Assembly: GCA_041661045.1 (NCBI GenBank)
Contig: JBAZVE010000001.1
Span: forward strand, 90,001-122,000
Direction: 5' to 3'
DNA from: Candidatus Saccharimonadota bacterium
GTDB lineage: Bacteria > Patescibacteriota > Gracilibacteria > UBA1369 > 2-02-FULL-48-14
Length of the DNA stretch: 32,000 nt
Made by a program: the position numbers and the translations under genes. The notes under the pieces were generated by a model, which was given only the letters and a program-made list of their open reading frames with translations, was not told the DNA's origin and made no database searches. Numbering within the stretch: position 1 is the first letter of the stretch; the number at the start of each line of letters is the position of its first letter. Below, piece by piece: positions 5,538 to 22,369 of this stretch.

Positions 5538-6290
5538 TCAATGGCAAAGATGTTCTTTCTTAACAAAACGCAAGGACGGTAAAAAAGAACTGCCCACCTG
5601 AGGATTGCCTGCTGCTAATCCAGTAAATGGGGTGTTGCAACGCCGATTAAATGTTGCAATTGCTTGGGTATAATGTTCTGCCATGGCTTCATCAATTGGA
5701 ATTAATGTAATGTCCTGTGTGAGGAATCCGTGACCGTATCGAATGACCTTAAGTTCTGGAAAATAAACCCTCATTCCTGTCACTCCATAGTCACTTAAAT
5801 CGTGAGTTGCGATTTGAGCCTCTAGTAGATCTGAATCTAAGGCTGCAGCCTCTTTCAGCATCAGGTTGACATGCAAAATATTTTCTTCATCTGTATCAGC
5901 AAGGCATTGATTAAAAATTTGCGTATTGAGTGCAGATAGTCTTCGTGTAGAAATGATCGCAGCGTCTACATCATTTGCACTGAATTCATGCAATTTTTCC
6001 ATGGCTCTTTCGTGAGCTTCTTCACCTTTTGGATAAATAAGAAACGATGGATCCATATATGCGTCCACATCATCCCCTCTTAGTCTTAGCGCTATCACAG
6101 GGCGAATTTTTTCAAGAGGGACTTGTGCGTTATAAATTTTTCTGTGTTGCGGTTGGTATATGCCTTTCATAGTGTAGTGGGTTAAATAAAAATCCCTCTT
6201 CTCAGAGGGCTTAAAGGAGTTGAGTTTGATGTGAATTAAATGTGGCGCACGCGCCAGGCCCTCTGAATTGATTTCAAAGAGTTCCACCAT
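5538..6290 (-). CDS. hypothetical protein, start uncertain (ATG 6290 or ATG 6170; the ORF track uses TTG 6386)
   Basis: The frame is open from 6386 to 5538. The TTG at 6386 coincides with a TTGACT -35-like hexamer. Copy 2 of the terminator-like repeat lies in frame at 6183-6211, 12 nt upstream of the ATG at 6170. Confidence 0.55.
   Translation of the reverse strand: MVELFEINSEGLARAPHLIHIKLNSFKPSEKRDFYLTHYTMKGIYQPQHRKIYNAQVPLEKIRPVIALRLRGDDVDAYMDPSFLIYPKGEEAHERAMEKLHEFSANDVDAAIISTRRLSALNTQIFNQCLADTDEENILHVNLMLKEAAALDSDLLEAQIATHDLSDYGVTGMRVYFPELKVIRYGHGFLTQDITLIPIDEAMAEHYTQAIATFNRRCNTPFTGLAAGNPQVGSSFLPSLRFVKKEHLCH
6183..6211 (-). repeat. copy 2 of the 29-nt exact repeat (terminator-like hairpin plus T tract)
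   Basis: TAAATAAAAATCCCTCTTCTCAGAGGGCT on the plus strand is identical at 5504-5532 and 6183-6211. Confidence 0.85.
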
Positions 6291-6320
6291 TTTTGGGTGT
6301 TTTTTGTGGCGAAATTGTTC

Positions 6321-6386
6321 GTGACTTTTGAATTCATGCTTGCTATGATGTACTCGTACGATAGTACGGACCACGATATTAGTCAA
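6321..6386. promoter_or_regulatory. candidate overlapping divergent promoters with a GTAC-rich inverted repeat
   Basis: Plus strand: GTGACT (6321-6326), 17 nt, TGcTATGAT (6341-6349). Minus strand: TTGACT (6386-6381), 17 nt, TATCGT (6363-6358). Inverted repeat CGTAC-GATA-GTACG at 6355-6368, with GTAC at 6350, 6356 and 6364. Confidence 0.3.
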
Positions 6387-6391
6387 GCCCT

Positions 6392-6655
6392 ATGCGCCAA
6401 AACCACACTGCCCTCAAAAATATTTCAAAGACCTTTGTATTGGCGGAAAGTAAAAAAACGATGATGAAACTTTTGAGTGATCTCCTCACCCCCGCTGAAA
6501 TCCATGACATTCATGAACGGATTCTCATTATGCAAGAACTCTACAAAGGCAAACCTCAACGAGAGATTGCAAAGAAACTGGGCGTGAGCATCGCCAAAGT
6601 GAGCCGTGGCTCCCAAGTCCTGCAGTATGGAGAAGGAAGCTTTGACCCTTTATAA
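6392..6655 (+). CDS. TrpR-family (YerC/YecD-like) small helix-turn-helix protein
   Basis: LLTPAEIHDIHERILIMQELYKGKPQREIAKKLGVSIAKVSRGSQVLQYG matches the TrpR/YerC pattern LLTP.E..R..I..EL..G..QREI...LG.SIA..SRGS..L. Confidence 0.75.
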   Translation: MRQNHTALKNISKTFVLAESKKTMMKLLSDLLTPAEIHDIHERILIMQELYKGKPQREIAKKLGVSIAKVSRGSQVLQYGEGSFDPL

Positions 6656-6675
6656 TTTTATGTTAAAATAGATGT

Positions 6676-7392
6676 ATGAGTGGTAATGACAACGCAACTG
6701 GTTTATCCCCTTTCGATCCCGAAGATTTAGATTACGGCCCTGAGCCCGAGCTTGTTGAAGTGACTTTACGGTTTCCTGATTTGGGTTTTCAAGATGATCT
6801 CGAGGGTTCAGAGCAGCTTGCTTTCCATTCAATCATTGATCAACTTCGAGAGTTTGGGTTGAAATTTCAGCACCTTGCCCTTGATGGGACCTACAGCATG
6901 ACTGGAACGAACCTTAGCCCCGAGCAGTTCCAAGCGGTTGGGGCTTTTTTAAGAAAACTTAAGGATGACACCGTGCTCAGTCAAATCATCTCAACGCTAC
7001 AAGTCCTTCCCCAAGGGGACACTCCTCCGGATGGCGTTCCTCTCCTTATCCAAATAGATGGAGCGCCATTAACACAGGCGCAAGTGCGGGAGGTTCTTGG
7101 TTTTGTGGAAGACTTCGATTTGGACGCTGTTTCAGTCTGTGGCAGTCTTGATGGGCGCGCTGCCACCTTAGATGCTCTTGGCGATACGGACCTCCGAGAG
7201 TCCATGGAGACTTTATTGGGGGAGAGTTTTTCCTTTTCTGGCATTACGCTTCATGCTCCTGACGGGTTCTCACCTCTCGGGCATGACTACCTTAAGACCC
7301 TCTCTGGATGGCTTCGTATTCAGGGTGTTGGTGTCAGTACAAGTTTTTACTCCGTTCGGGCACCAGCAGAAAGCGAGACCGACTTTGAGTAG
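6676..7392 (+). CDS. hypothetical acidic protein, 238 aa
   Basis: ORF 20 nt downstream of the TrpR-like gene, probably in the same operon. The product is Asp/Glu-rich. The 3' end overlaps the convergent YbaK-like gene by 59 nt. Confidence 0.55.
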   Translation: MSGNDNATGLSPFDPEDLDYGPEPELVEVTLRFPDLGFQDDLEGSEQLAFHSIIDQLREFGLKFQHLALDGTYSMTGTNLSPEQFQAVGAFLRKLKDDTVLSQIISTLQVLPQGDTPPDGVPLLIQIDGAPLTQAQVREVLGFVEDFDLDAVSVCGSLDGRAATLDALGDTDLRESMETLLGESFSFSGITLHAPDGFSPLGHDYLKTLSGWLRIQGVGVSTSFYSVRAPAESETDFE

Positions 7393-7834
7393 CTGTAATA
7401 AAAGATTGGATGTCTTCGGCGGAGATGACTAGGGTGGCGGTGTTCACCAAGGGGTGACACTGCAAAGCCTCGCCGCGCAGAGTTTCGTCGAGGATGAGTT
7501 CCACTTGGTGAGTTTTGTCGTTGAAAAGCCCCAGAATGGTGACGGAGCCGGGCTCCACGCCGAGGTGTGTTTTCATAGCCTCCGCGGAGGCAAAATGGAG
7601 CTTGGTTTCGCCCAGTTCTTTTTCCAAAGCTTTCAAATCGGCGCGTTTGTCTTCTTTAATGGACACAATGTAATAGCGGCTTCCGTTTCGATTGGTGATG
7701 AAAAGATTTTTGATTTTTGCGCCGGGCATGGGCGGGCACAGAAGGTTCCCCTCTTCACAGGTGAAAACGGCGGGATGATCGAAGCGCTCGTACGATATAC
7801 CGTGCGCGTCTAAAAAGTTGAGAAGTTCTTGCAT
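7334..7834 (-). CDS. YbaK/ProX-type aminoacyl-tRNA deacylase domain protein
   Basis: MQELLNFLDAHGISYERFDHPAVFTCEE, KNLFITNRNG, LGVEPGSVTILGL and HPLVNTATLVI fit the YbaK/ProRS-associated editing domain. The start is set at ATG 7834, because the ORF-track extension to 8200 runs antisense into rarA. Confidence 0.78.
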   Translation of the reverse strand: MQELLNFLDAHGISYERFDHPAVFTCEEGNLLCPPMPGAKIKNLFITNRNGSRYYIVSIKEDKRADLKALEKELGETKLHFASAEAMKTHLGVEPGSVTILGLFNDKTHQVELILDETLRGEALQCHPLVNTATLVISAEDIQSFITATQSRSRFLLVPERSKNLY

Positions 7835-7882
7835 GGGCCAAGCATAGCATGATCTCCTGATTCGTGTATACTTCAAGCTGCT

Positions 7883-9007
7883 ATGGAGCCTCTTGCAGCC
7901 AAAATACGGCCCAAACAACTGGATGAGTTTTATGGGCAAACCCACCTGGTTGGACCCGGGAAACCTCTCCGCGTGGCGATGGAACAAAAACATCGGTTTT
8001 CCTTTGTTTTGTGGGGGCCGCCCGGTGTTGGAAAAACCACTTTGGCCCGAATGTACGCACAAAGCTTGGAGGCGCAGCTTTTTGAACTCTCCGCGGTTTC
8101 TGCCGGGAAAGCCGACATCAAAGCCATTATGGAGCTGGATTTTTTTGGCCAAGCCCGCGTTTTGTTTTTGGATGAAATCCATCGTTTCAATAAGGCTCAA
8201 CAGGATTTTCTTCTTCCGTTTGTGGAGAGTGGTGAACTCACTTTGATTGGTGCCACCACCGAGAATCCGAGTTTTGAAGTGATTCCGGCGCTGCTCTCAC
8301 GGTGTCGTGTTTTTGTTTTGAATCCATTGGGGAAAGAAGAGATGCAGGAGATTTTGAGTCGCACGGAAATTCCAATGGACGAGGAAGCACGGGATTGGCT
8401 GATTCAAATGGCGGATGGGGATGCGCGCCAAGCTCTCACGGTTTTGGAAAACACGCAGCAGCTCTTTAAAACGGTGACGGTGGAAAGCCTGAAAAATACG
8501 CTCCAATCTAAGTTTTTGCGTTACGACAAAAAGGGCGAGGAGCACTACAATATCATCAGTGCTTTTATTAAAAGTATGCGGGCGAGCCAGCCCGATGCCG
8601 CTTTGTATTATTTGGCCCGAATGATCGAATCCGGAGAGGACCCCAAGTTTATTGCGCGACGCATGGTGATTTTTGCGAGTGAAGACATTGGACTCGCCAT
8701 GCCCACCGCGCTGGTGGTGGCCAACGAGGTCTTTCGCGCAGTGGAAACCATTGGTCTTCCCGAATGCGCGCTCAATTTGGCTCACGGAGTCGCCTACCTT
8801 TCGCAGTGTAAAAAAGACCGGAGCGTGAATGATGCGCTCAAGGCCGCCATGGCCGATGCCGAGCAATACGGCAATTTGCCTGTACCCCTCATGCTCCGCA
8901 ACGCACCGACCAAACTCATGAAAGAGCTGGATTATGGCAAAGGTTATGAGAAATACTCCAAAGCAGATTTCCTTCCGGAAAAACTGAAGGGGAGGAAATA
9001 TCTTTAA
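7883..9007 (+). CDS. rarA: replication-associated recombination protein A (AAA+ ATPase RarA/MgsA)
   Basis: [22 protein letters not shown], Walker [23 protein letters not shown], and the C-terminal MgsA-type block [28 protein letters not shown]. Confidence 0.9.
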
Positions 9008-9016
9008 GTCGGATTT

Positions 9017-9856
9017 ATGGAATTGAATGAACGACCACTACTGCTTCTGGATGGGGACAATACCCTGTGGAAGTGGATGGAGTATGCGGTGCCCGCGTAT
9101 GAGGCGATGTGTGCTGTGATTGCGCAAATGGCCGGAAAGACGAAGATCGAAACGGCGGCGGCCATGAAGAGAGTTTACAGTCGAAAAAGGACCATTGAGA
9201 ATGTGCTGCTCATTCAAGGACTCAAGGAAGATGGCTTTTTTAATGGCGTAAGGAATTTTGATGAAAATGAAGCCATCCGTATCGCTATGCGAACATTTAG
9301 TCGTGTGCGCAGTCAGCATTTGCAGCTGTATCCCGGAGTGAAGGAAGTGATGGAAACGGCGCACAAAAAAGGGTGGCGGCAAATCATGCTCACCGACGCG
9401 CCTGGGCACCAAGCTCGCCGCCGGCTGGAGCGCACGGGCGTAGACCATTTGGTGGAATGTATTTTTGCCATGCCCACCGGTTCCGACTTACCCCCGTCCA
9501 AGGCTCGTTATCGTGGACTTCGGGAATCACCGATTCCTGTCTTTGAGGTCGAGCACGAAAAACCTTACACCGATTTGGAGGGGATTTTGAAGATGACGCG
9601 AGATCAAATCCGTGCACTTGTTTATATGTGGGGAGATAACGACAAAAAAGATATGGAATTGGCACGAAGATGGGGCATGCGTGGCCTTTTTGCCGTGTAC
9701 GGAGGTTCTGATCCTGATCTGAGCGCCCGCCTCCAACCCTTTGCACCCGAGAGCGTGCTTCGACGAAACAGCAGTCTCCTTGAGGCTGAATCGAGGAGCA
9801 GTCATGGTCTCATCACCCCCATCCATCATCCTTTTGAGGTTTTGAGCGTGCTGTAG
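9017..9856 (+). CDS. HAD-superfamily hydrolase
   Basis: Motif I LLLDGDNTLW (DxDxT) and a late acidic motif WGDNDKKDMELA. Confidence 0.65.
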   Translation: MELNERPLLLLDGDNTLWKWMEYAVPAYEAMCAVIAQMAGKTKIETAAAMKRVYSRKRTIENVLLIQGLKEDGFFNGVRNFDENEAIRIAMRTFSRVRSQHLQLYPGVKEVMETAHKKGWRQIMLTDAPGHQARRRLERTGVDHLVECIFAMPTGSDLPPSKARYRGLRESPIPVFEVEHEKPYTDLEGILKMTRDQIRALVYMWGDNDKKDMELARRWGMRGLFAVYGGSDPDLSARLQPFAPESVLRRNSSLLEAESRSSHGLITPIHHPFEVLSVL

Positions 9857-9878
9857 ATTGTCTGAAGAGACTTGCTGA

Positions 9879-11324
9879 TCAGCGCCCATATATCACATAG
9901 ACGGCTCCTGCATCAACGCTGGTACTGTTGTTTCCGGAGGCACCCACAAGGATGTCCGCCAGTCCATCTCCATTTAAATCTCCCGTGGCAACCTGGTTCG
10001 CCGCATAATCGTTTTCAGCCTCTCCAAGCAATTTTATAGCAGAAGGTGAAGAAAGCCGGAAGGAGCTGAATCTCTCCTCTTGACCTCTTACGATGTAAAC
10101 TGCTCCGGCATCATTAGCGGCTTCATCCTGACCCACAGCTCCTATGATGATTTCACTCCACCCGTCTCCATCCTGGTCTGCCACGGCAATCGTTTTCCCA
10201 GCGTAATCACCCATATCTTCTCCTGTGAATTTTACGACACTGGTGTCGCTCAACACCATGGAACTTAATGTGGTAGAACTTCCATAAATCAAATATACGG
10301 CCCCTGCATCTACGCCTGCATCATCATTATAACTAGGTATTAAAATTTCTCCGAAACCGTCTCTATTGATGTCCCCGACCTTTAATTGTTCACACAAACA
10401 ATCTCCCATGGCTTCTCCCGTAAGTTGAACCATACTTGCGTCACTCAGGAAATTTTCACCGCTGAGGTCGCTTGATCCATAAATCAAATACACTGCTCCA
10501 GCTGCATCTCCCCCGTCATCATTACCTGATGCTGAAGTTAAGATATCTTCAAGACCATCTCCATTGATGTCTCCAATGGCTATGGAACTCCCTGCATGAT
10601 CAAAAGGATTTTCTCCCACCCAAGTTGCCGTACTGGCGTCCAATAAACTCATCGATGTGAGCTCTGAGTCTTGGCCTTTTATAAGGTAAATTTTGCCGTC
10701 GTAGTTGTCGACATCCGAATAACCGTATCCTTTCGCGCTCACCACAATGTCATCATAACCATCTCCATCTGTATCCCCAACACTCACGGCAGATCCAGCT
10801 GCATCCGATGCTCCTTCACCGGTAAACTTTGGCAAGGTTCCATCCAGAAAATCTAAAGATCCTGTCCGGCCCGCGTGTCCATAAATAATATAAATCGCTC
10901 CCGCGTTCCCTCCGGCGTCATCATCTCCTTGATCTGCCACGACTACATCTTCAAAACCATCTGCGTTCAAATCACCCACCGCAAGCGCGCCGCCCAGGTA
11001 ACCTGAGGACCTCAAACTCGTGTCTCCTGTCCATACTGCAATGCTACTCCCAGAAAGGATGGTGTCACCTCGATATCGTCCTGCCTTTCCCCGTGCTATA
11101 TAAATAGTGTTTTTGCTGGGGGCGGCAAGGATGGATTCGTCGTAACCATCGCCGTTCAAATCACCCGTAGCTATGTCTGTTCCTACTGATGCATCATAAC
11201 TTGGCCCCTGAAATTGGGCGAATGACTCAAGGGAAAGTGTCGCGGCTTGCGTCAAGGGAATGATAAGGAGGCCTGTCAAAATTAGAAGAACGGGAACTCT
11301 AAGAGCTTTTTGTGTAGAGATCAT
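9879..11324 (-). CDS. secreted FG-GAP repeat protein (predicted seven-bladed beta-propeller)
   Basis: N-terminal signal-like segment VPVLLILTGLLIIPLTQAA. Seven GD(L/I/T)NxDGxxD(I/V)(L/V)V calcium-loop repeats are spaced about 60 aa apart, each followed by AGAVY(L/I)IYG-like strands. Confidence 0.85.
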   Translation of the reverse strand: MISTQKALRVPVLLILTGLLIIPLTQAATLSLESFAQFQGPSYDASVGTDIATGDLNGDGYDESILAAPSKNTIYIARGKAGRYRGDTILSGSSIAVWTGDTSLRSSGYLGGALAVGDLNADGFEDVVVADQGDDDAGGNAGAIYIIYGHAGRTGSLDFLDGTLPKFTGEGASDAAGSAVSVGDTDGDGYDDIVVSAKGYGYSDVDNYDGKIYLIKGQDSELTSMSLLDASTATWVGENPFDHAGSSIAIGDINGDGLEDILTSASGNDDGGDAAGAVYLIYGSSDLSGENFLSDASMVQLTGEAMGDCLCEQLKVGDINRDGFGEILIPSYNDDAGVDAGAVYLIYGSSTTLSSMVLSDTSVVKFTGEDMGDYAGKTIAVADQDGDGWSEIIIGAVGQDEAANDAGAVYIVRGQEERFSSFRLSSPSAIKLLGEAENDYAANQVATGDLNGDGLADILVGASGNNSTSVDAGAVYVIYGR

Positions 11325-11375
11325 AGTGATGAATAAAGATTTTTACACAAACATTTGACCTCAAATGCTTTATGG

Positions 11376-11428
11376 TTGTCAATTGATCTGACGAAGATGG
11401 AGCAGCAAACTGGAAGAAATTCGGACTT
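11376..11428 (-). repeat. degenerate copy 1 of the tRNA-Gly 3' end plus flank (att-like)
   Basis: The minus strand reads AAGTCCGAATTTCTTCCAGTTTGCTGCTCCA followed by TCTTCGTCAGATCAATTGACAA. CCAGTTTGCTGCTCCA matches the tRNA's CCCGTTACCTGCTCCA at 13 of 16 positions without gaps. The post-CCA TTCGTC is shared with the tRNA flank ACATTCGTCGTG. Confidence 0.6.
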
Positions 11429-11431
11429 GGT

Positions 11432-11827
11432 TTAATCTTTAGAAGGTCTCGGTAGGCTCGTGAGATATACTCTGATTTTTTGCTCATCGCCTGCTGCACC
11501 TCCATTTTCCTCGACCCTTTCATAAGTTGCAAAATGACCCCCGTCAGGCTCTGCTAAGGCCCCTCTATTTGCAAAACCAATAGTAAATCCCCCGATTTTC
11601 ACACCTTTAGGGATTCTTGGCCCCTTCCAAGACAATTCATATACTGTCGTAACCAATTGCGCGACTCTCTCTCTAATACGCTGTAGCGCTGCTTCTTGAT
11701 GAGAAAGGGGGGCAGTAGCATCCTTGTAACCTGGTTTCCCCGTAAGATCAACTGGCGTTACGGGTCTATTTGTCGCCCCAGAGGAAATCTTTCTTAAGAG
11801 AACATCGCGTACTTCATCAGAAGGCAT
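11432..11827 (-). CDS. hypothetical protein, 131 aa
   Basis: ORF lying between the two tRNA-Gly-like repeat copies. No motif recognised. Confidence 0.5.
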   Translation of the reverse strand: MPSDEVRDVLLRKISSGATNRPVTPVDLTGKPGYKDATAPLSHQEAALQRIRERVAQLVTTVYELSWKGPRIPKGVKIGGFTIGFANRGALAEPDGGHFATYERVEENGGAAGDEQKIRVYLTSLPRPSKD

Positions 11828-11872
11828 ACCAAAACAATTAGGTTAGGTATAACTAAGCATAAACTCTATATT

Positions 11873-11915
11873 TTGTCAATGGAGCAGCAAGTAAGACCAA
11901 AATTTTCGGGCCCGT
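11873..11915 (-). repeat. degenerate copy 2 of the tRNA-Gly 3' end (att-like)
   Basis: The minus strand reads ACGGGCCCGAAAATTTTGGTCTTACTTGCTGCTCCA followed by TTGACAA. It shares the ACGGG, CGA, TTAC and CTGCTCCA blocks with the tRNA T-arm and acceptor end, and TGGAGCAGCAA (plus strand, 11 nt exact) with copy 1. Confidence 0.55.
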
Positions 11916-11931
11916 TACTTCTTGAGAGATC

Positions 11932-13041
11932 TCATGAATGTAAAGAGCTTGAAAAGCTTTTTGAATCAACTGAATAAGGCCAAAATTCTTCTCGATCCGT
12001 TACTTCTTTAGAAACCTCCCGTAAGAGTGCGAGTAAGGCAACTACGAGTCTCGCACTTGATTTATCGTCTTCATGATCACTTCTTGCGCCTCGTAAGCAG
12101 TTTATAGCTATACTTGCTCTACGACCAACATAGCCAAATTGGCGATCAGTACCGTAACAGAGTTCGTACATTCTTTGTATGAACTGCCTTTTTTCATTGT
12201 CTCCTGTATCTTCCTTAGCTATTAAATCCCACAATTCTATAAGTAAAGTCCTGCCAAGGTTCAGTGCAAACAGATGTTCCCCCTGAGAATCTCCGTGTGT
12301 TTTTTTCAAATCTGCCAAATTCATCATCGGCATCGCCGCATATTGTACAAAAGGTGGATATGCGTCCACAACTTTTTTTGGTGCGCCACTCTCTTTCGTG
12401 GTTTCTCCAAATGACAGTAATTTTTGCTTCAACTCTACAAAAAAGCTTGCATCTTCTGAATGTTGTGCCAAATAGCTTTCTTTCCCTTTTTCTAGCATTA
12501 GATCAAATAGTGCTTTGGAAGAAGTCCCTTCAGAAGAAAATTCCTCAAGCATTTCATCAAAACTTAATCTTAAAAAGTCTTCCATTCGTGGAAATTTTTG
12601 CTTAATCTTAAAAAGAACATCTTCAGGATCCAAATCCCTTGTGTCTATAGACCATCCATCATTTGGCCCCGAAAGCCCTACCTTCCCATCCAAAATGTCC
12701 TGGATGCCACTTGCATGTCTTGCTAGTTGCCTTCCCATGTCAGCAAGCACAACTTGTTCAGGAGATCTATAAGTGATTTTTTCGATACTGTCGGCCTCTA
12801 TCCCTGGGTATAAAATCCTTAAAGCTGTGGGTAGATCGATACCTGAATCCCTGCTTGCAGTTTGTAATGCAATTGAGTAGGTTGTTTTTCGCCCATTGAA
12901 TGCGCGTGATACAAAGGCATCAGCTGTTTGTGGGAATTGTTGACGAAAGGATTGAAGAGATTCTTGAGATGGTAATTCGAGCACAAGTATACCGTCTTCT
13001 CTTGTCTCACAAATTGGTGTAGTAGCTCCAAGGCCTTTCAT
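11932..13041 (-). CDS. hypothetical protein, about 369 aa, no recognisable domain
   Basis: Long ORF. The start is placed at ATG 13041 (MKGLGATT), because the upstream 90 nt of the ORF-track model contains a consensus promoter whose predicted TSS falls on this ATG. Confidence 0.6.
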   Translation of the reverse strand: MKGLGATTPICETREDGILVLELPSQESLQSFRQQFPQTADAFVSRAFNGRKTTYSIALQTASRDSGIDLPTALRILYPGIEADSIEKITYRSPEQVVLADMGRQLARHASGIQDILDGKVGLSGPNDGWSIDTRDLDPEDVLFKIKQKFPRMEDFLRLSFDEMLEEFSSEGTSSKALFDLMLEKGKESYLAQHSEDASFFVELKQKLLSFGETTKESGAPKKVVDAYPPFVQYAAMPMMNLADLKKTHGDSQGEHLFALNLGRTLLIELWDLIAKEDTGDNEKRQFIQRMYELCYGTDRQFGYVGRRASIAINCLRGARSDHEDDKSSARLVVALLALLREVSKEVTDREEFWPYSVDSKSFSSSLHS

Positions 13042-13047
13042 GTATTT

Positions 13048-13112
13048 ATGATAGCACATATATTTTCTATATGTCAAAGCGATTTGACATATATGCAATA
13101 AGCTGTTATAAT
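13048..13112. promoter_or_regulatory. back-to-back divergent consensus promoters whose -35 boxes form a perfect palindrome
   Basis: Palindrome TATATGTCAAA-gcga-TTTGACATATA at 13068-13093. Plus strand: TTGACA (13084-13089), 17 nt, TGtTATAAT (13104-13112). Minus strand: TTGACA (13077-13072), 18 nt, TGcTATCAT (13056-13048). Confidence 0.65.
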
Positions 13113-13134
13113 TATGTACATTTAATCTCATAGT

Positions 13135-13785
13135 ATGGAAGGTATACTCGATATCTGTTCAAGGCTTGCAGGAGCACCTATTGTTTACCGTGAAGGTACC
13201 AGAGAGTTGATGCGTATGTATATCGCCAAAGGAGGTACAGCTTCTGCTTATAATGTCATCCTACAGGGCCATACCTTTGGCGTACAGAAGGATGGCCGTA
13301 TTACAGGAGACCGTTCTGGCCACATTGAGCGCTTACTTCGAGTTGTTTCTTCAGAAACACCTGACCAAGCTACTGCTTTAGATATTCTTCAGGAGATTCT
13401 CTCTCTTATGAGGAGTGCACGAGAGGCAGTTGGTAGGGTCGTTCCTGTATCTGAAAAACCAGCAGATCCTGTTAGATTTCTAGGTCAATTCCCAAGATTT
13501 AAACCTGAAATTGGAAATCGTTTGAATGAGATGCTTGAGGCAAACCCAAGAGTTAAAATGGTTCCTCGGCACGATCTCTCTCCTGACGGTCGACTCCAAC
13601 GCTTACTCCAAGATCATCGTCTTCTTCTTTTACATGATGCGGGGACTCAAGTTATAGCTCAAGAAGTTGCTGATGCAGAGACATTTCTACAAGTCGCTGG
13701 TGGCGTTGGGTATTATCTTGCCGTGCCAAAAGATGTTGATGGGCTTTTTGATGATTTCTACGCAGTTGCGACGGGAAATGCGTGA
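13135..13785 (+). CDS. hypothetical protein, 216 aa
   Basis: ORF starting 23 nt after the consensus TATAAT box. No motif recognised. Confidence 0.6.
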   Translation: MEGILDICSRLAGAPIVYREGTRELMRMYIAKGGTASAYNVILQGHTFGVQKDGRITGDRSGHIERLLRVVSSETPDQATALDILQEILSLMRSAREAVGRVVPVSEKPADPVRFLGQFPRFKPEIGNRLNEMLEANPRVKMVPRHDLSPDGRLQRLLQDHRLLLLHDAGTQVIAQEVADAETFLQVAGGVGYYLAVPKDVDGLFDDFYAVATGNA

Positions 13786-14023
13786 GAGTACCGTACGGAA
13801 TGTCATCACTGCTGAATATGTAAAAGGTACCTACTCCGAAGCCTTTTCTTTCTCCACGAAAAGTCAGCATTAAATCCAGCGTTCTGGAAATAGCGAGGGC
13901 CTCTTCTACCAACTCTCTTTCTGAGGCGTACATGGATTCATTCACATGAAGCTCAATCCCTTCTGCAGAACCCACGCCATAAGTGATCCAGTGCTTTGAA
14001 GCTTCTATGTGAGCAGGATCCAT
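13652..14023 (-). CDS. possible small hypothetical protein, perhaps a 3'-degraded gene
   Basis: An ATG at 14023 (MDPAHIEASKHW...) lies just downstream of the tRNA-Gly 3' end. The last ~45 codons overlap the 13135..13785 ORF and look compositionally non-coding (Q/H/R/L-rich). The ORF-track N-terminus runs through the tRNA and is spurious. Confidence 0.3.
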   Translation of the reverse strand: MDPAHIEASKHWITYGVGSAEGIELHVNESMYASERELVEEALAISRTLDLMLTFRGERKGFGVGTFYIFSSDDIPYGTLTHFPSQLRRNHQKAHQHLLARQDNTQRHQRLVEMSLHQQLLEL

Positions 14024-14094
14024 TGGTTCAAATCCATAAAAACGCCCTTCTCGGATGGTACTCGCTTCACCCTCTGTGATTTCACGACGAATGT

Positions 14095-14169
14095 TGGAGC
14101 AGGTAACGGGAATCGAACCCGTATTTCCGCCTTGGCAAGGCGGCATAATAACCATTATATGATACCTGC
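14095..14169 (-). tRNA. tRNA-Gly (anticodon GCC), CCA encoded
   Basis: The reverse complement reads GCAGGTATCATATAATGGTTATTATGCCGCCTTGCCAAGGCGGAAATACGGGTTCGATTCCCGTTACCTGCTCCA. The acceptor stem is GCAGGTA/TACCTGC. The anticodon stem is CCGCC/GGCGG with loop TTGCCAA. The T-arm is ACGGG-TTCGATT-CCCGT, and the discriminator is U. Confidence 0.92.
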
Positions 14170-14361
14170 GGCAGAGGGGATTTTAGCCAAAAATGCATCC
14201 TGTAGCAAGCTGCAAAAAAACTGGTTTCTTTCGCTCTCCAAGTTAGGTTTGCATAAACAACGGCTGATGAGCTACTTTTAAAGTATAAACGGCTTGCTTA
14301 AGCCACAAATTGAATGGAAATCTGTGCCCGGGCACATGTATTTTTGCGAAGCTCCAAATCA

Positions 14362-14389
14362 TTGACGCTTTGCGCTTTTGTGCTAGAAT
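14362..14389 (+). promoter_or_regulatory. candidate sigma70 promoter giving a leaderless or near-leaderless mRNA
   Basis: TTGACG (14362-14367), 16 nt, TGcTAGAAT (14381-14389). The ATG at 14398 is only 9 nt after the -10 box. Confidence 0.5.
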
Positions 14390-14397
14390 CTCCCTCT

Positions 14398-15153
14398 ATG
14401 CCAACTCCTGCGGAAACCGATCAGAAGGAAGAGATTGCCATTCTCATCGCAGATGAGATTGAGCATACCAGTACATTTCCCCTTTTTTCCAATACCAGGG
14501 GTAAGTTGGGTGTTTTGTCGCCTGGCTTGATGGATGAAAGCATCCGTGTCCGAGATTTTTTTAGCCTTATAGGCCTCGGCATAGAAAGGCTTGTAGAAAA
14601 GTGGGGGTCGGAAGCTCCTCAGTGGAGTTATGAACGCCTTGGGAATTATGTGGAGGAAAAGGACGCCAATGTGAATGTGGTTTTGCGGACCTACGGAGGA
14701 AAAGAATTTCGGGTCTGGAGCCTGATGCATCTCTTGGATAAATGGAACGCCGAAGGACGGGTGACACGAGGTTTTGTACCAGAGTATGCGGCCAGTGCAG
14801 GTGCTACTGTTTTCGCCCACACGGGAGAAAGACATATGGGATATACGGCACATTCATTTCATCATTTAGCCAGCAATGAGAAAACGGGAGAAATTTATGA
14901 TGGACCTAATCATATCAAACACTACCTTAAGCAGATTAGTATGCTTCTGCGCAGAGAAGTTCGCTTGGAGGAGCTTAAGACCGATGGGCCTGATAAAGCT
15001 GTCTATTTTGGGGGGTGGCGACTGCAAACGGATGGCGTAGCGAAGGCTTATGTGGGACCGGATAAGCTTTTGGATCACTTCCGTCAAACAACAGGAATCA
15101 ACCCCGAGGATTACCCGGAGTTGAAAGCTGTGTTTGAATTGAAGGCAGTTTAG
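14398..15153 (+). CDS. divergent ClpP/S14-like serine peptidase-fold protein (tentative)
   Basis: NVNVVLRTYGGKEF...YAASAGATVFAHTGERHMGYTAHSFHHLAS parallels ClpP's YINSPGG...GQAASMGAFLL.AG..GKR...P.S..MIHQP in order and spacing. The start is set at ATG 14398 because a promoter lies inside the ORF-track extension from 14314. Confidence 0.45.
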   Translation: MPTPAETDQKEEIAILIADEIEHTSTFPLFSNTRGKLGVLSPGLMDESIRVRDFFSLIGLGIERLVEKWGSEAPQWSYERLGNYVEEKDANVNVVLRTYGGKEFRVWSLMHLLDKWNAEGRVTRGFVPEYAASAGATVFAHTGERHMGYTAHSFHHLASNEKTGEIYDGPNHIKHYLKQISMLLRREVRLEELKTDGPDKAVYFGGWRLQTDGVAKAYVGPDKLLDHFRQTTGINPEDYPELKAVFELKAV

Positions 15154-17339
15154 AAGTCGTATCCGTCGCTTGGAGCGGCGGGTGCGGCGGGGCCTTCCGG
15201 CTTGCGAGCGGGTGCCGGAGCGGGGGCATCTTGGTAGAACTCTTTCATCGAAAGGTTGTAACGACCTTGTTCGTCGATCTTGAGGAGTTTTACGCGGACT
15301 TTGTCGCCCACTTTCACCACATCTTCCACCTTGTTCACACGGAAAGGACGGAGTGCGGAAATGTGCACCAATCCATCTTTACCAGGAACGAATTCTACAA
15401 AGGCTCCGAAGTCCATGATTTTCACCACGGTTCCCTCGAATTCTTCACCCGGAGTGGGTTCGTATACAATTGATTTCACCCAGTTGGCCGCCTTGGTTCC
15501 CGCTTCCTGATTTGGAGCGGTGATGATGACGAGACCGGTTTGTTCGATGTCCATTTCCACGCCACATTCGGCGGTGATCTTTTGAATGGTTTCTCCACCC
15601 TTACCAATCACATCACGAATGTAATCCGGATTGATTTGGATCTTCATGATGATGGGTGCGTATTTGCTGAGTTCACCACGAGGAGCGGGCAATACGGTCT
15701 GCATTTCGGCGAGCATTTGATTACAAGCGGTGGCGGCTTTTGACAGCGCCTCTCCCATCATTTGCAGAGTAATTCCCTTCACTTTGATGTCCATTTGCAG
15801 AGCGGTGATTCCGTCCGCGGTGCGGGCCACCTTAAAGTCCATGTCTCCGGCAAAGTCTTCAAAAGACTGAATGTCGGTGAGGATTTTGTAAGCTCCGGTT
15901 CCGGACTGTTTGAATTCATCGCTGCACACAAGACCCATGGCCACGGCGGAAACCGGCTTTTTGAGCGGTACTCCGGCGTCCATGAGTGAAAGGGTTGATC
16001 CACAGACGGAAGCCATGGAGCTGGATCCGTTACAAGTCATGATTTCGGACACCACAAGAATGGTGTATGGAAAATCTTCTTTGGCGGGAAGTACGGGAAG
16101 CAAGGCTCGTTCTGCGAGTGCTCCGTGTCCAATTTCACGACGGGAAGCGCCGCGAAGTCCTTTGATTTCTCCTACGGAATACGGTGGGAATACATAATAG
16201 TGAATGTATCGTTTTTCGGTGTCCACTTCCATGGAGTCGATGATTTGCGCATCGCCGGGCGCACCGAGTGTGGTGAGCGTGAGCGCTTGCGTTTCTCCTC
16301 GTTGGAAGAGAGCGGATCCGTGCGTTCGAGGCATGAGTCCCACTTCGATGCTGATCTTTCGAACTTCATCGAGGCGGCGACCGTCGAGCCGTTGGTCTCG
16401 CTCTAAAATATTGTTTCGCATGGAGTTGTCCATGACTTTTTCAAGTCCGGCCAGGAGAGCTCCTTTGGTGTAGGTTTCCGCTTCGATTTCTGCGGCAAAA
16501 TGCGCGAGCACTTTATCTTGAAGTGCGTGGATCGCGTCTTTGATTTCTTTCTTGGATCCTCCTTTGTAGATCGCGAGGTCGTCTGCGGTGAGCACGCCTG
16601 CAACCAGATTGATGATCTCGTCGGAGGCTTTGGCCACCGTGTACGAGCGGAGCGTAGGATTGATTTTTTGTACGAGTTGCATTTGGAAAGCACAGATTTC
16701 CTTGATGGTCTTGTGCGCGAGTTCCAGCGCTTGCAACATTTGTTCGTCCGTGAGCTCATTGGCTCCGGCTTCCACCATGGTGATGGCTTCCATTGTTCCG
16801 GCCACAAGCAAATCGAGCTGAGCCCCTTCCATTTCTTCAAAGGTGGGGAACACAATGAATTGATTGTTCTTCATTCCAATGCGCACTCCGGCCAAAGGCC
16901 CGGCAAAAGGCAAACCGGCCACGAGCATGGCGGCGGACATCCCTGTTATTGCGAGCACTCCGGTCTCATTCACGAGGTCAGCGGAAAGAATAGTAGCAAT
17001 CGCCTGAGTCTCGTTGGTGATTCCTTTTGGGAAGAGGGGGCGAATGGGACGATCGATGATACGAGCCTTTAAAATGGCTTCATCGCTGCTGCGGCCATCT
17101 CGTTTCATGAAGCGAGATCCTTTGATCTTTCCGGAGGCGTAGTAGCGTTCTTGGTATTCGATAGTAAGAGGGAAGAAATCCGCGTCGGGTTTTCCTTCTT
17201 CGGCCATCATGGCGGTGCAGAGCACGATGCTCTCCCCCATTTGAATGGTAACGGCCCCGTTCGCTTGCAAAGCAAGTCGCCCGGTTTCGAGCTTAATCTT
17301 GCGACCGGCAAGTTCGGTTTCAACAGTTTGTATAGACAT
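15150..17339 (-). CDS. pnp: polyribonucleotide nucleotidyltransferase (PNPase)
   Basis: 729 aa with two RNase PH-like halves, a KH region (IRDVIGKGGETIQKI) and an S1 domain (EGTVVKIMDFGAFVEFVPGKDGLVHIS). Confidence 0.95.
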   Translation of the reverse strand: MSIQTVETELAGRKIKLETGRLALQANGAVTIQMGESIVLCTAMMAEEGKPDADFFPLTIEYQERYYASGKIKGSRFMKRDGRSSDEAILKARIIDRPIRPLFPKGITNETQAIATILSADLVNETGVLAITGMSAAMLVAGLPFAGPLAGVRIGMKNNQFIVFPTFEEMEGAQLDLLVAGTMEAITMVEAGANELTDEQMLQALELAHKTIKEICAFQMQLVQKINPTLRSYTVAKASDEIINLVAGVLTADDLAIYKGGSKKEIKDAIHALQDKVLAHFAAEIEAETYTKGALLAGLEKVMDNSMRNNILERDQRLDGRRLDEVRKISIEVGLMPRTHGSALFQRGETQALTLTTLGAPGDAQIIDSMEVDTEKRYIHYYVFPPYSVGEIKGLRGASRREIGHGALAERALLPVLPAKEDFPYTILVVSEIMTCNGSSSMASVCGSTLSLMDAGVPLKKPVSAVAMGLVCSDEFKQSGTGAYKILTDIQSFEDFAGDMDFKVARTADGITALQMDIKVKGITLQMMGEALSKAATACNQMLAEMQTVLPAPRGELSKYAPIIMKIQINPDYIRDVIGKGGETIQKITAECGVEMDIEQTGLVIITAPNQEAGTKAANWVKSIVYEPTPGEEFEGTVVKIMDFGAFVEFVPGKDGLVHISALRPFRVNKVEDVVKVGDKVRVKLLKIDEQGRYNLSMKEFYQDAPAPAPARKPEGPAAPAAPSDGYDF

Positions 17340-17366
17340 AATTCTGAGCAGTTAGGGTAATAATAT

Positions 17367-17526
17367 TGATGCCGCTTACGCGGCGTTATTGCCTAGCAAA
17401 CCCTTTCGGGTTCGCTTGCTCAGAGGGAGGTTTCAAGACATCTCTTTGATCGACCTATGCAATGATGTGGCTTGCGCCACTTTTTTGCTTAGCAGACCCA
17501 TGGGGTCCGCCTAGTAGAGAGTTCTT
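17367..17526 (-). ncRNA. tandemly duplicated structured element in the pnp 5' leader (candidate cis-regulatory RNA)
   Basis: Two units 96 nt apart start at 17367 and 17463 (plus-strand coordinates). Each has two hairpins. On the minus strand, unit A reads GCCGC-GUAA-GCGGC and GCGAACCC-GAAA-GGGUUUGC. Unit B reads GUGGC-GCAA-GCCAC and GCGGACCC-CAU-GGGUCUGC. Confidence 0.5.
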
Positions 17527-17547
17527 GTGATCTCACCCTGAGCGGGC

Positions 17548-17572
17548 AAGAAAGAAGGGGCGTAGAGCCCCC
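17548..17572 (-). terminator. candidate intrinsic terminator after rpsO
   Basis: The minus strand reads GGGGC-TCTAC-GCCCC followed by TTCTTTCTT, starting 6 nt after the rpsO stop. Confidence 0.45.
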
Positions 17573-17577
17573 TCAGT

Positions 17578-17841
17578 TTACTTACGAAGTTGTAGTTGGT
17601 CCAGGACTTTCTCGTACTCGTCTTTGCTCTTCGTCTTTAGGTACTGGAGGTGACGGCGGCGCTTGCCCACCATCTTGAGCAGTCCTTGGCGAGAGTGCAA
17701 ATCATTTTTGTGACTCTTTAAGTGCTCGGTGAGCTGGTTGATGCGAGTGGTGAGAACCGCGGCTTGTACTTGCGCACTACCGGTATCCTTGTCGTGCTGG
17801 GCAAATTTTTTGATGATTTTCTTCTTGTCGTCTCGTTTCAT
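17578..17841 (-). CDS. rpsO: 30S ribosomal protein S15
   Basis: DTGSAQVQAAVLTTRINQLTEHLKSHKNDLHSRQGLLKMVGKRRRHLQYL is the canonical S15 sequence pattern. Confidence 0.95.
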   Translation of the reverse strand: MKRDDKKKIIKKFAQHDKDTGSAQVQAAVLTTRINQLTEHLKSHKNDLHSRQGLLKMVGKRRRHLQYLKTKSKDEYEKVLDQLQLRK

Positions 17842-17878
17842 AAATGGGATTAAAGATGATTGTACTTGAGCACGGGGT

Positions 17879-17907
17879 ATTTTATAAGAAAGGCCCTAAA
17901 AATGCAA
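17879..17907 (-). promoter_or_regulatory. candidate sigma70 promoter for rpsO-pnp
   Basis: Minus strand: TTGCAT (17907-17902), 17 nt, TAAAAT (17884-17879), ending 38 nt upstream of the rpsO ATG. Confidence 0.5.
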
Positions 17908-17926
17908 GGTTTTCCTTTAGATCAGG

Positions 17927-18874
17927 CTAAATCCAGCGTTTGAATCTAAAGAAAACAAGCATCACAAAGAGAATAAATAGCATTCCTCCGGCCAAAACAA
18001 AGAAAATGAGCGGGTGCTGGGCATAGGGCAGATGGACATTCATCCCATACATTCCCGCCAAAAGGTTGAGCGGCAGCATCACTACGGAAAAAACCGTCAG
18101 TGTTTTGATCACATTGTTGGTGGTATGGGAAATGAGGGATTCATTGGTGTCTTGTAAGGATTCCACCAACTCTTTCAAATTCTCCAAATTGCTCCAAATC
18201 TTTTCCACTTTATCCAGCACATCGTCAAAATAAACCTCCAAACTGTCGGGGAGGAATTTCTTATTCTTGTGCTCAATCTGTGCCACCACGGTGCGGAGCG
18301 GTGCCATCACACGACGGAATCCAATGATGTTCTTCTTGGTGTTCAAAATCTCCTTGAGCATATCCTTCTGTCCTCCCAAAAAGGCCTCCTGTTCCAGGGA
18401 GTTCACATTGGACTCGATGTTGTCGAGCAAGGGGAAGAGTCCGGCAAAAAGGTGATCCACAATTTCATACATCAAATACCCACTGGAATGTCCCATCACT
18501 TTTTTTCGTTCGGTGAGGCTTTTTTCGGTCAATGCGTAAAAATCGTTGAGTGGCTTGAGCCCTCCCCAATGCACGGTGATCAGCAAGTTTGCTTTTATAA
18601 AAATATCCACTTCTTCGCTCACTATCCTCTGTTTGCGTTTATCAAAATAAGGAATGTGCAAAATAATGAAAAGATAGTCTTCGTATTCGTCCACTTTGGA
18701 GCGTTGATTCTCGGAAAGACAGTCTTCAATATCCAGTTCGTGGAAGCCGTGCTTCTCCTTTAAAGCAAGCAAAGATTCGGCATCCGGATCCTCCACCACG
18801 GTCCATGTGAGTTTTTCAAAACTGATGGATTGTTGCATGTTTTCAATATAAGCACTTAAGATCTCTTGGCGCAA
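17927..18874 (-). CDS. corA: CorA-family magnesium/cobalt transporter
   Basis: YGMNV (GMN motif) lies between two C-terminal TM helices, with a CorA-like soluble N-domain. The ORF-track start is TTG at 18874, and the first ATG is at 18838. Confidence 0.85.
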   Translation of the reverse strand: MRQEILSAYIENMQQSISFEKLTWTVVEDPDAESLLALKEKHGFHELDIEDCLSENQRSKVDEYEDYLFIILHIPYFDKRKQRIVSEEVDIFIKANLLITVHWGGLKPLNDFYALTEKSLTERKKVMGHSSGYLMYEIVDHLFAGLFPLLDNIESNVNSLEQEAFLGGQKDMLKEILNTKKNIIGFRRVMAPLRTVVAQIEHKNKKFLPDSLEVYFDDVLDKVEKIWSNLENLKELVESLQDTNESLISHTTNNVIKTLTVFSVVMLPLNLLAGMYGMNVHLPYAQHPLIFFVLAGGMLFILFVMLVFFRFKRWI

Positions 18875-18900
18875 ACTCAGTTTGGTTGCATAATGCCCGC

Positions 18901-19854
18901 ATGAAATATCGCGCCATTATTCGGGAAGCGTGGGTTCTGACGCAAGAGAATAAGAAACTCATTTGGTGGTTTGCTTTTGTCCCGGCCCTGCTGAGTTTTT
19001 TGGTGAGCATGGTGTATTTGACCTATCAAGCCTACGCTCTGTGGAGCTCCCCCTATATTCGTCCCAATGCCGAGGAGAGCCATCTGCTCATGAACATCAT
19101 CAAAAAGATCGTTCTGCTTCTTCAGGAGAACCCCAGCCTTGGTGTCTTTGTGGTGCTTTTGGTCGCTATTGTGGGGCTGGCCTATTTGATGCTTCCCGTT
19201 TTTACTCAGGGAGCACTCATCCAATTGGTGGCTCGCCTACGAGCGGGGGAACCGGTTTCCATCACACGGGGCATCAGTTACGGTTTTGGACGATTTTTGC
19301 AGCTTTTTGAATACCATCTTTTTATTAAAACTTTCAGCTTTTTTGGGATTTTTACAGAGGCTGCTTTCGCTTTTCGTGTGTTTGGCCTCGAACCCTTTAA
19401 GGTCTTTGGTTGGATCTTCCTTCTCATTTTAATTGTCGGGCTCTTTTTCTCTCTCCTTTTCACTTACTCGGAGTACTATATTGTGATCGATGGCGAAGGC
19501 GTTTTTAGTAGCATCATCAAAAGCAGTGGTTTGGTGGTGCGACAATGGCATCACACGCTGTTTATGTTTTTGTTGATGGCGGTGATCCTTCTGCGTGTCA
19601 TTCTCAATCTTTTGGTGGCGCTCTTGGTGCCCGCCCTTGTGCTGGCTCCCGTATTCTTATTCACCAGCCTCGCTCTGGCCAAAATAGGTATTTTTGTGGG
19701 GGCCATTGTGGGGGCCGTGGTGCTGTACTTTGCGTCTTACTTTTTGGGCGTTTTCCATGTCTTCACCAGTTCCGTGTGGACTTTCACTTTTTTGGATCTC
19801 ACCAAAGAAGAGTCCACTGCAGTGAACTTGCATGAGGCGGCTGCGCGAGATTAG
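18901..19854 (+). CDS. multi-pass integral membrane protein, unknown function
   Basis: About six long hydrophobic segments. The start is set at the first ATG (18901, MKYRAIIREAW), whereas the ORF track uses TTG at 18886. Confidence 0.65.
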   Translation: MKYRAIIREAWVLTQENKKLIWWFAFVPALLSFLVSMVYLTYQAYALWSSPYIRPNAEESHLLMNIIKKIVLLLQENPSLGVFVVLLVAIVGLAYLMLPVFTQGALIQLVARLRAGEPVSITRGISYGFGRFLQLFEYHLFIKTFSFFGIFTEAAFAFRVFGLEPFKVFGWIFLLILIVGLFFSLLFTYSEYYIVIDGEGVFSSIIKSSGLVVRQWHHTLFMFLLMAVILLRVILNLLVALLVPALVLAPVFLFTSLALAKIGIFVGAIVGAVVLYFASYFLGVFHVFTSSVWTFTFLDLTKEESTAVNLHEAAARD

Positions 19855-19858
19855 GGGT

Positions 19859-20431
19859 TTAAAGGGCTCCCGTTAGGATGAGGAAGATTCCGTAAAACAG
19901 TGTAAAAAGACCCAGTCGTTTCAGCATGCCGGGAATGTTTGCCTTGTAATCCAGATTTTTTTTACTGGCTTTCCGTGCGAACTGAAAGACCGTGATGTCT
20001 TGTACATAGGAAAACAGAAGTGCTCCAATCACAAAGACGGCGGCCAATTGAGAGCTGTAGATTTCCATAACCATCGTGGGGAGAGTCGTGGGCTGGAGGC
20101 CGCTCAACAATGGACTCAGGAAAAGGATGAGCGCGGTGTGGAAAATCTGGTCCACAAAAAACGGAATGGTGCTTTTTCGTTTATTGTAACGGCGGTCGAA
20201 GCTGATTTTGAGACAGTCTTGGGTGAAGTGCACCGCAAAAATAATCCCAATCACGATCCATGTCATTCGATGTTGCAAGATGGGGAGCAGTGCGACCGTG
20301 CTGCACAAGGCAATGATGCCGGCGTGCTGAAGCGTACCCGTCCAGCTTTTATATTTCTTGTGGATCAGGTCGTTGGACTGGAAGACGAAGTCCCCGAGCA
20401 GATGTGCGATGATGAGGTGCAAAAAAATCAT
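19859..20431 (-). CDS. DUF3307-like membrane protein
   Basis: The N-terminal HLIIAHLLGDFVFQS motif is typical of DUF3307, and the protein is polytopic. Its start overlaps the stop of the upstream cNMP-binding gene by 4 nt (ATGA). Confidence 0.55.
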   Translation of the reverse strand: MIFLHLIIAHLLGDFVFQSNDLIHKKYKSWTGTLQHAGIIALCSTVALLPILQHRMTWIVIGIIFAVHFTQDCLKISFDRRYNKRKSTIPFFVDQIFHTALILFLSPLLSGLQPTTLPTMVMEIYSSQLAAVFVIGALLFSYVQDITVFQFARKASKKNLDYKANIPGMLKRLGLFTLFYGIFLILTGAL

Positions 20432-22340: not shown

Positions 22341-22369
22341 TTGACGCACTTCTAAAGTTATGTTATAAT
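22341..22369 (+). promoter_or_regulatory. strong candidate sigma70 promoter
   Basis: TTGACG (22341-22346), 17 nt, TGtTATAAT (22361-22369), ending 22 nt upstream of the ATG at 22391. Confidence 0.55.

Follow-up and report, generated by a model that had tools for sequence, protein, structure and literature searches.

In phage lambda, the start sites of the divergent promoters pR and pM lie 82 bp apart and the operators overlap the -35 regions (PMC1874639), and in the Pc/Pr pair of the mobile element pLS20 a strong promoter and its divergent partner are controlled together by Rco (PMC4207663). Among bacteria of the candidate phyla radiation (abbreviated CPR and also known as Patescibacteria), transcription and translation signals have hardly been studied, because these organisms are uncultured. 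Here we describe a locus from a CPR bacterium of the Peribacteria lineage, within a 32-kb stretch of DNA (contig JBAZVE010000001.1, positions 90,001 to 122,000; hereafter the window, in whose own coordinates positions are given). At this locus, a 26-bp palindrome lies between two divergent genes, o399 and o216, on an islet beside a tRNA-Gly gene. The locus resembles lambda pR/pM in having sigma-70 promoters arranged back to back with roughly 80 bp between their start sites (82 bp in lambda, about 78 bp here), as well as in the dyad symmetry over the -35 regions, where one bound protein could act on both promoters. Our preferred reading, which we consider somewhat probable, is that positions 13042-13134 form a compact, quasi-symmetric bidirectional promoter cassette with a possible dimer site, carried on an acquired tRNA-Gly islet. 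For a group whose signals are so little known, the locus offers a clean handle: a perfect-consensus bidirectional promoter serving one predicted leaderless and one predicted short-leader gene.

A divergent promoter pair

The two genes and the elements between them are as follows.

11932-13041, minus strand: o399, with corrected start; 369-aa protein (MKGLGATT...), function unassigned
13042-13134: divergent intergenic region, 93 bp, 24.7% GC, quasi-symmetric about 13080/13081
13048-13077, minus strand: promoter P(-); TTGACA (13077-13072), 18-nt spacer, extended -10 box TGcTATCAT (TGc 13056-13054, TATCAT 13053-13048)
13068-13093, both strands: perfect 11+4+11 inverted repeat, TATATGTCAAA (13068-13078)-gcga (13079-13082)-TTTGACATATA (13083-13093), by direct reading; candidate operator
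13084-13112, plus strand: promoter P(+); TTGACA (13084-13089), 17-nt spacer, extended -10 box TGtTATAAT (13104-13112; TGt 13104-13106, TATAAT 13107-13112)
13135-13785, plus strand: o216; 216-aa protein, function unassigned

Each promoter carries the TG of an extended -10 box, and with consensus scores of 12/12 for P(+) and 11/12 for P(-) the two rank first and second within positions 6000-20000. A first-pass annotation of this DNA, made from its letters and open reading frames (ORFs), had described a full consensus promoter (TTGACA-17-TGtTATAAT) directed toward the 216-aa ORF, and reading of the sequence confirms it at 12/12. The same annotation had called the two promoters the strongest in the window. 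This is true of P(+), the only 12/12 site in the whole window, but not of P(-), whose score is equalled by sites at 22341+ and 20990-.

Sites scoring at least 11/12 are expected at a mean of 0.52 per shuffled window, and a back-to-back pair of such sites arose in none of 300 composition-preserving shuffles, so that the promoter pair is not attributable to chance. Across 16 Peribacteria loci, conserved genes have TTG.../TAnnnT elements positioned upstream of them, and sequence together with comparative statistics gives good support for reading both arms as sigma-70-type promoters, the type this lineage uses. What is unusual is the quality of the -35 boxes: because none of 66 native lineage promoters has a 6/6 hexamer (the mode being 3-4 of 6), two adjacent perfect hexamers are atypical for the host.

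P(+) is predicted to start at about 13118-13120 and would transcribe the 216-aa gene with a leader of about 15 nt (15-17 nt), lacking a Shine-Dalgarno sequence, before ATG 13135, which lies 23 nt after the -10 box. P(-) is predicted to start on the A of ATG 13041, the 7th base after its -10 box, and would thereby yield a leaderless mRNA for the 369-aa protein. Since the -35 hexamers stand back to back, 6 bp apart, these predicted start sites are separated by about 78 bp. The upstream contacts of each polymerase would then cover the -35 box of the other promoter, and because of this expected overlap the two probably influence each other. That both promoters are functional we regard as highly probable.

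Symmetry of the intergenic region

The 26-bp perfect inverted repeat at 13068-13093, along with all of the coordinates reported for it in the first-pass annotation, was confirmed by direct reading of 12700-13500. Both -35 hexamers lie inside it. The perfect repeat ends at 11-nt arms, and an imperfect version with 18-nt arms is 83% complementary. Perfect inverted repeats of such size (arms of at least 11 nt, loop of at most 8 nt) are found in 7% of dinucleotide shuffles of the window, so that the palindrome by itself is mildly unusual and weakly significant. It is the sole inverted repeat of such size in the 32-kb window; across 282 kb of lineage DNA, most other long inverted repeats have the form of A-tract/T-tract terminator hairpins. 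When up to three mismatches were allowed, the palindrome pattern was observed once against 0.00 expected.

Might the repeat be a chance palindrome in an AT-rich spacer, or else a hairpin or terminator, with one or neither of the promoter-like sites in use? Its frequency in shuffles speaks for this, as does the stable hairpin that it forms as single-stranded DNA (-8.6 kcal/mol, z = -4.5). However, the stem has only 27% GC, is followed by no T-run and lies between divergent gene starts, which does not describe an intrinsic terminator. In addition, the joint promoter geometry was seen in 0/300 shuffles, and the start-codon distances of 7 and 23 nt fall on both peaks of the lineage-wide survey described below. 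We consider this explanation very unlikely. A terminator or RNA element was also rejected as a separate candidate: the AT-rich stem, lacking a T-run, lies upstream of both predicted starts and so would not be transcribed from either promoter, and the Rfam matches in the window are two tRNAs only.

The promoters themselves account for part of the symmetry. The TTGACA boxes explain six of the 11 positions in each arm, while the five remaining (the T before the hexamer and TATA after it) are surplus. With base frequencies taken from 28 native promoters of the Peribacteria lineage, the probability that two independent lineage promoters match at five surplus positions per arm is about 0.005.

A possible operator

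It is because the symmetry extends 5 bp per arm beyond the hexamers, and because both hexamers are perfect, unlike those of native promoters, that the palindrome can be read as the operator of a dimeric protein. Such a protein, bound to the 26 bp, would occlude both -35 boxes and repress both genes together. We put this function forward tentatively, as plausible but by no means to be presumed. The first-pass annotation had gone further and called the palindrome a natural operator for a dimeric regulator; the excess dyad symmetry argues for that description, whereas the lack of any islet protein with a detectable DNA-binding domain argues against it.

A number of other observations also weigh against an operator. 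On the protein side, o399, o216 and the neighbouring o131, o279 and o123 gave no match to helix-turn-helix (HTH), ribbon-helix-helix or winged-HTH families even at E <= 10. On the DNA side, no further half-site was found in the 32-kb window or in 250 kb of relatives, the 7% of shuffles containing such a repeat must be counted here too, and the lineage routinely has tight divergent promoters whose -35 or -10 boxes overlap, with no operator needed. Nor are o399 and o216 a conserved pair. The first-pass annotation had looked to conservation of the palindrome where the flanking genes occur, and here the answer was negative: it is absent upstream of P0002, the homologue of o399, and of P0004 and P0005, the homologues of o216 (loci L001, L034 and L035-39). 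This comparison is a weak test, because the homologues are 28-54% identical and the divergent gene pair is never kept. A 6-4-6 inverted repeat, CTTGACttatGTCAAG, on the -35 box of locus L034 was treated as chance, its half-sites being in opposite order.

On these grounds, the main rival is a purely constitutive bidirectional promoter, whose palindrome would be the relic of an inverted duplication, or of a quasi-palindrome made 'perfect' by template switching. Either event would have copied a strong -35 box with its flanks to the other strand, leaving symmetry without a binding partner. The weak continuation of the symmetry into both spacers (the 18-nt arms, 83% complementary) is what a duplication would leave. 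The failure to find a DNA-binding protein in the islet, the lack of conservation of the palindrome at homologous loci and the routine occurrence of tight divergent pairs in this gene-dense lineage point the same way, and CPR genomes encode few regulators. On the other hand, a perfect 11-bp arm must be recent or maintained, both -35 boxes are 6/6 as against 0/66 native promoters, and identical arms adjoin HTH regulator genes in unrelated metagenomic contigs (see below). On this evidence we consider a purely constitutive promoter rather unlikely.

The two explanations differ in what the islet would have brought with it. If the palindrome is not an operator, a strong constitutive promoter was delivered by horizontal transfer; if it is, an unrecognised regulator on a tiny mobile islet is implied. 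Such a regulator could be an unrecognised DNA-binding fold encoded on the islet itself, in the N-terminal 125 aa or so of o399 or in the 216-aa family, although we think this improbable. Were it true, the islet would be a minimal self-regulating two-gene switch in which one dimer gates a leaderless and a leadered gene, and its protein would be the first of a new regulator family, in a phylum where the control of transcription is all but unstudied.

Start codons and leaders

The ORF model of o399 runs to 399 aa from an ATG at 13131. The first-pass annotation had taken its first 30 codons to be promoter DNA, and this is borne out: the 90 nt from 13042 to 13131 have 24% GC and the lowest codon log-odds within the whole 399-aa model, and with a start at 13131 the divergent genes would be separated by only 3 bp. 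The upstream ATGs 13059 and 13131 sit in or upstream of the P(-) -10 box. Three annotation pipelines disagree, with the IMG (369 aa) and NCBI PGAP (391 aa) models both beginning MKGLGATT, that is at ATG 13041, and the Prodigal (Logan) model beginning at 13059, inside the -10 box. P0002, the only homologue of o399, lacks the N-terminal domain and says nothing on the o399 N-terminus. That the true start is 13041, rather than 13131 or 13059, is well supported by this evidence, and the gene model has been corrected to match. For o216, an N-terminal alignment with its two homologues, in which the three family members align from residue 1, fixes the start at 13135.

The distance between -10 box and start codon was surveyed in the window and 15 Peribacteria loci (L004-L018), 282 kb in all. 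A -10 hexamer matching at least 5/6 ends exactly 7 nt upstream of 42 of 513 candidate ATGs, whereas each other distance accounts for 1-8; a second, broader class has distances of 22-24 nt. When measured instead from promoter-like sites scoring at least 10/12, the distance to the next long-ORF ATG again peaks at 7 (7/36, from six gene families), and many of the 7-nt cases are conserved among orthologues. P(-), at 7 nt, and P(+), at 23 nt, coincide with the two lineage peaks. The proposal in the first-pass annotation that P(-) starts on ATG 13041 and makes a leaderless mRNA is thus supported by a sharp, lineage-wide signature, and we think a leaderless start at 13041 likely.

More generally, it appears that Peribacteria have a major class of leaderless mRNAs, marked by the dominant sharply positioned signal, and a second class appears to have leaders of about 15 nt without a Shine-Dalgarno sequence (distances of 22-24 nt). 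Among the papers searched, we found no report of leaderless genes in Peribacteria, the lineage being listed only as 'SD-scarce', with Ca. Peribacter riflensis entered as such and as lacking CCUCC (PMC10783764). Because window genes are likewise generally without Shine-Dalgarno sequences, the absence of a ribosome-binding site before o216 is normal for this organism. The leaderless signal, a -10 box ending 7 nt before ATG, matters for gene calling in Peribacteria genomes, and this side result may prove more widely useful than the palindrome.

Predicted leaderless starts in the window include 6676+, 18838-, 18901+, 25619+ and 14398+. Two divergent leaderless pairs are found among its other genes. 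The pair at 18838(-)/18901(+) has starts separated by 63 bp, with a 3-bp overlap between its -35 boxes, TTGCGC and TTGGCG. Relatives keep this layout, and the real starts are ATGs, not the TTG codons given in the ORF list. In the pair at 25590(-)/25619(+), only 29 bp separate the starts, and the -10 boxes lie almost side by side. Separately, the short leaders of unrelated genes share a motif, ATT(T/A)AA(T/A), which sits right at the predicted 5' end, some 12-15 nt ahead of the ATG. It occurs before o216, a conserved MNLIL... family and the MKKYL... gene of L010, and is possibly a ribosome-recruiting motif of a non-Shine-Dalgarno kind. Its locations are:

Window, 13120-13126
L005, 6560-6575
L011, 6668-6683
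L018, 3665-3680
L010, 70-86
L015, 2625-2641

Acquisition at the tRNA-Gly gene

The borders of the islet, and a smaller module beside it, are marked by copies of a tRNA end.

14095-14169, minus strand: tRNA-Gly(GCC) gene; its 3' end, TTACCTGCTCCA (14106-14095), is one islet border
11874-11894, minus strand: displaced tRNA-Gly 3' end, TTACTTGCT(gct)CCA (11894-11880), then directly TTGACA (11879-11874); the other islet border
11397-11408, minus strand: second 12-nt copy of the tRNA end, TTGCTGCTCCAT, which together with 11879-11890 brackets the 131-aa ORF
11432-11827, minus strand: o131, 131-aa ORF with no family match, in the neighbouring mini-module

Since it is bounded by the tRNA 3' end and the displaced copy, we define 11895-14094, about 2.2 kb holding o399 and o216, as the islet. 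In the nearest relative, L004, the real tRNA end runs into TTGACA, the same junction as at the displaced copy. The GC content of the islet is 41-44%, compared with 50-52% in the flanks, and tblastn found none of o131, o399, o216 and o279 in the relatives L004-L018. The island status assigned in the first-pass annotation holds on all these counts (low GC, absence from relatives, tRNA-end repeats at the borders), and the islet is evidently horizontally acquired.

The neighbouring PNPase gene (pnp, 15150-17339, minus strand) has 91% identical orthologues in metagenome-assembled genomes that bear the names Candidatus Peribacteria, Peregrinibacteria or 'Gracilibacteria', placing the organism among the CPR Peribacteria. 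Fifteen relatives keep the gene order upstream of pnp, and in nearly all of them tRNA-Gly directly follows pnp. The DNA downstream of these two genes differs from one relative to the next. In Peribacteria, the 3' end of this tRNA is a hot spot at which insertion recurs. The tRNA itself carries a further clue. On the one hand, the window tRNA-Gly is identical to that of the distant relatives L008, L009 and L017, whose pnp genes are 74-83% identical, and differs at about nine positions from that of the nearest relatives L004-L006 (pnp 88-91%). On the other hand, the displaced remnant at 11880-11894 carries the nearest-relative allele (TTACTT). Because the intact gene has the distant allele and the remnant the nearest-relative one, this suggests that the tRNA-Gly copy and the islet were imported together.

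Traces of similar events are visible elsewhere. Direct repeats of the tRNA-Gly end, 18-19 nt long, lie 120-175 nt downstream in L006 (12340-12490) and L017 (12410-12610), and a conserved junction of CCA with TTGAC(A/T), placing a promoter directly after the tRNA, is found in L004 (4144-4185), in L017 and in the window at 11874-11880.

Given this setting, the palindrome might instead be a recombination or attachment-type site of the mobile islet. Direct repeats of a tRNA 3' end border the islet in which it lies, and its geometry is compatible with a tyrosine-recombinase core of 10-6-10 or 9-8-9 shape, in which the asymmetric centre GCGA would give direction. However, profile searches of the islet and window region gave no integrase or recombinase family match, the borders of the islet are formed by the tRNA-end repeats rather than by the palindrome, and relatives have no such palindrome in their own tRNA-Gly islets. 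Such a site would also leave unexplained the exact 17- and 18-nt spacers to two extended -10 boxes, and we consider it extremely unlikely. As neither the palindrome nor homologues were found in viral contigs, a phage origin is not supported.

The islet genes and their annotation

The N-terminal 125 aa or so of o399 are unique, whereas its C-terminal 240 aa or so (two thirds) are 54% identical to P0002 (253 aa), the one relative found among 5.8 billion clustered proteins. For o216, a full HMMER scan of 1.84 billion representatives returned P0004 (44% identical), which lies between tRNA-Pro and tRNA-Leu in another genome, and P0005 (28%), which lies among PemK, DUF5677 and DUF3800 genes on a marine scaffold. 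The o216 family is one of accessory genes in variable or tRNA-flanked islands. We found no co-occurrence of o216 and o399 homologues at homologous loci.

Searches of o399, o216, o131, o279 and the 123-aa ORF against Pfam (also at E <= 10), NCBIfam, PADLOC and PHROGs gave no family match, and the islet and neighbouring ORF proteins had no match among PDB sequences. AlphaFold2 models of o399 and o216 were poor (mean confidence score, pLDDT, 59.9 and 57.7), and with these poor models Foldseek returned nothing at E <= 0.001. The idea that o399 is a cryptic tyrosine recombinase was rejected, because it has no family match and the columns that it conserves with P0002 contain no R..HxxR..Y pattern.

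Database models of the two genes differ in their 3' ends as well. The NCBI records MFA6023696.1 and MFA6023697.1 (WC777_00555/00560, 'Candidatus Gracilibacteria bacterium') read TGA as glycine under genetic code 25, passing the TGA stops at 11932-11934 and 13783-13785 to give 391-aa and 252-aa products. This reading of TGA explains why the NCBI o399 product is longer (391 versus 369 aa). We reject code 25 for this organism: because the homologues of both proteins end at TGA, the standard code (code 11) applies and the C-terminal extensions are artefacts. Published annotations of this genome evidently carry either a wrong start or a wrong genetic code.

Two further reading frames lie nearby. 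The 279-aa ORF o279 (14314-15153, plus strand), between pnp and tRNA-Gly, is without a family match and missing from relatives. It probably begins at ATG 14398 (251 aa), 9 nt after the end of a TTGACG-16-TGcTAGAAT element (14362-14389), which predicts a leaderless mRNA or a 1-2-nt leader, and at its 3' end the ORF has a 4-nt overlap with the pnp stop. The 167-aa ORF model of one pipeline (13652-14155, minus strand) begins inside tRNA-Gly and shares 134 nt with the conserved 3' end of o216; this model is spurious, at least in its 5' part. A 123-aa version from ATG 14023, without family matches, could at best be real.

Comparison with described systems

As an element, the islet resembles the genomic islands of tRNA genes in its tRNA-Gly 3' end, short direct repeat, low GC, absence from relatives and hot-spot tRNA. 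It differs from them in being only about 2.2 kb long, in the failure to find an integrase and in carrying two ORFan genes. In its predicted translation signals, P(-) resembles the leaderless mRNAs of Actinobacteria, Deinococcus and archaea, in which about 7 nt separate the end of the -10 box from the start codon and transcription starts on the AUG, although the lineage here belongs to the CPR (Peribacteria).

With respect to control, the pLS20 pair works through DNA looping, several operators and a regulator that is known, and no such component is demonstrable at the islet. The lambda pair is controlled at three 17-bp operators by the repressors CI and Cro, one encoded on each side. In contrast, the islet has one 26-bp palindrome centred between the -35 boxes and no repressor was found, the flanking proteins being unlike CI or Cro.

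A match in sequence is found in the autoregulatory HTH operators that overlap a -35 box, those of Xre-type antitoxin genes and the 12-2-12 operators of ArsR/SmtB genes, which are likewise perfect, AT-rich palindromes of about 26 bp embedding TTGACA. A metagenome scan for the two arms with any centre yielded 11 contigs with about five distinct sequences, none homologous to the window, whose own contig lies outside the collection scanned; they serve as an analogy only, and L023 and L027 (eukaryotic-repeat-like) were ignored. In L025, an AbiEii operon contains a near-leaderless Xre-type antitoxin gene whose -35 box is the TTGACA of the palindrome, with an 18-nt spacer before TAGGTT, and the same arms occur in intergenic DNA near Xre-type genes in L026, L030 and L033 and near ArsR-type genes in L024, L029 and L032. 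In Firmicute-like contigs the palindrome is extended to ATTACCACT...AGTGGTAAT (L024 13400-13600, L028 100-210, L029 3220-3310, L032 3700-3900), with two more direct TTGACATATAAC copies about 30 nt apart, beside an ArsR-family gene and a P-type ATPase; the TTGACATATAAC copies look like an array of binding sites.

By analogy, a palindrome of this kind can serve HTH dimers, although these contigs say nothing direct about the present locus. They differ from it in having a recognisable HTH protein nearby, where the islet has none, and in the ArsR contigs the palindrome is about 400 nt from the regulator gene. Since there is no homology with the window, the resemblance to the Xre and ArsR loci is convergent. 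A divergent promoter pair, possibly with a shared operator, is a familiar design, of which this instance sits on a small tRNA-associated islet.

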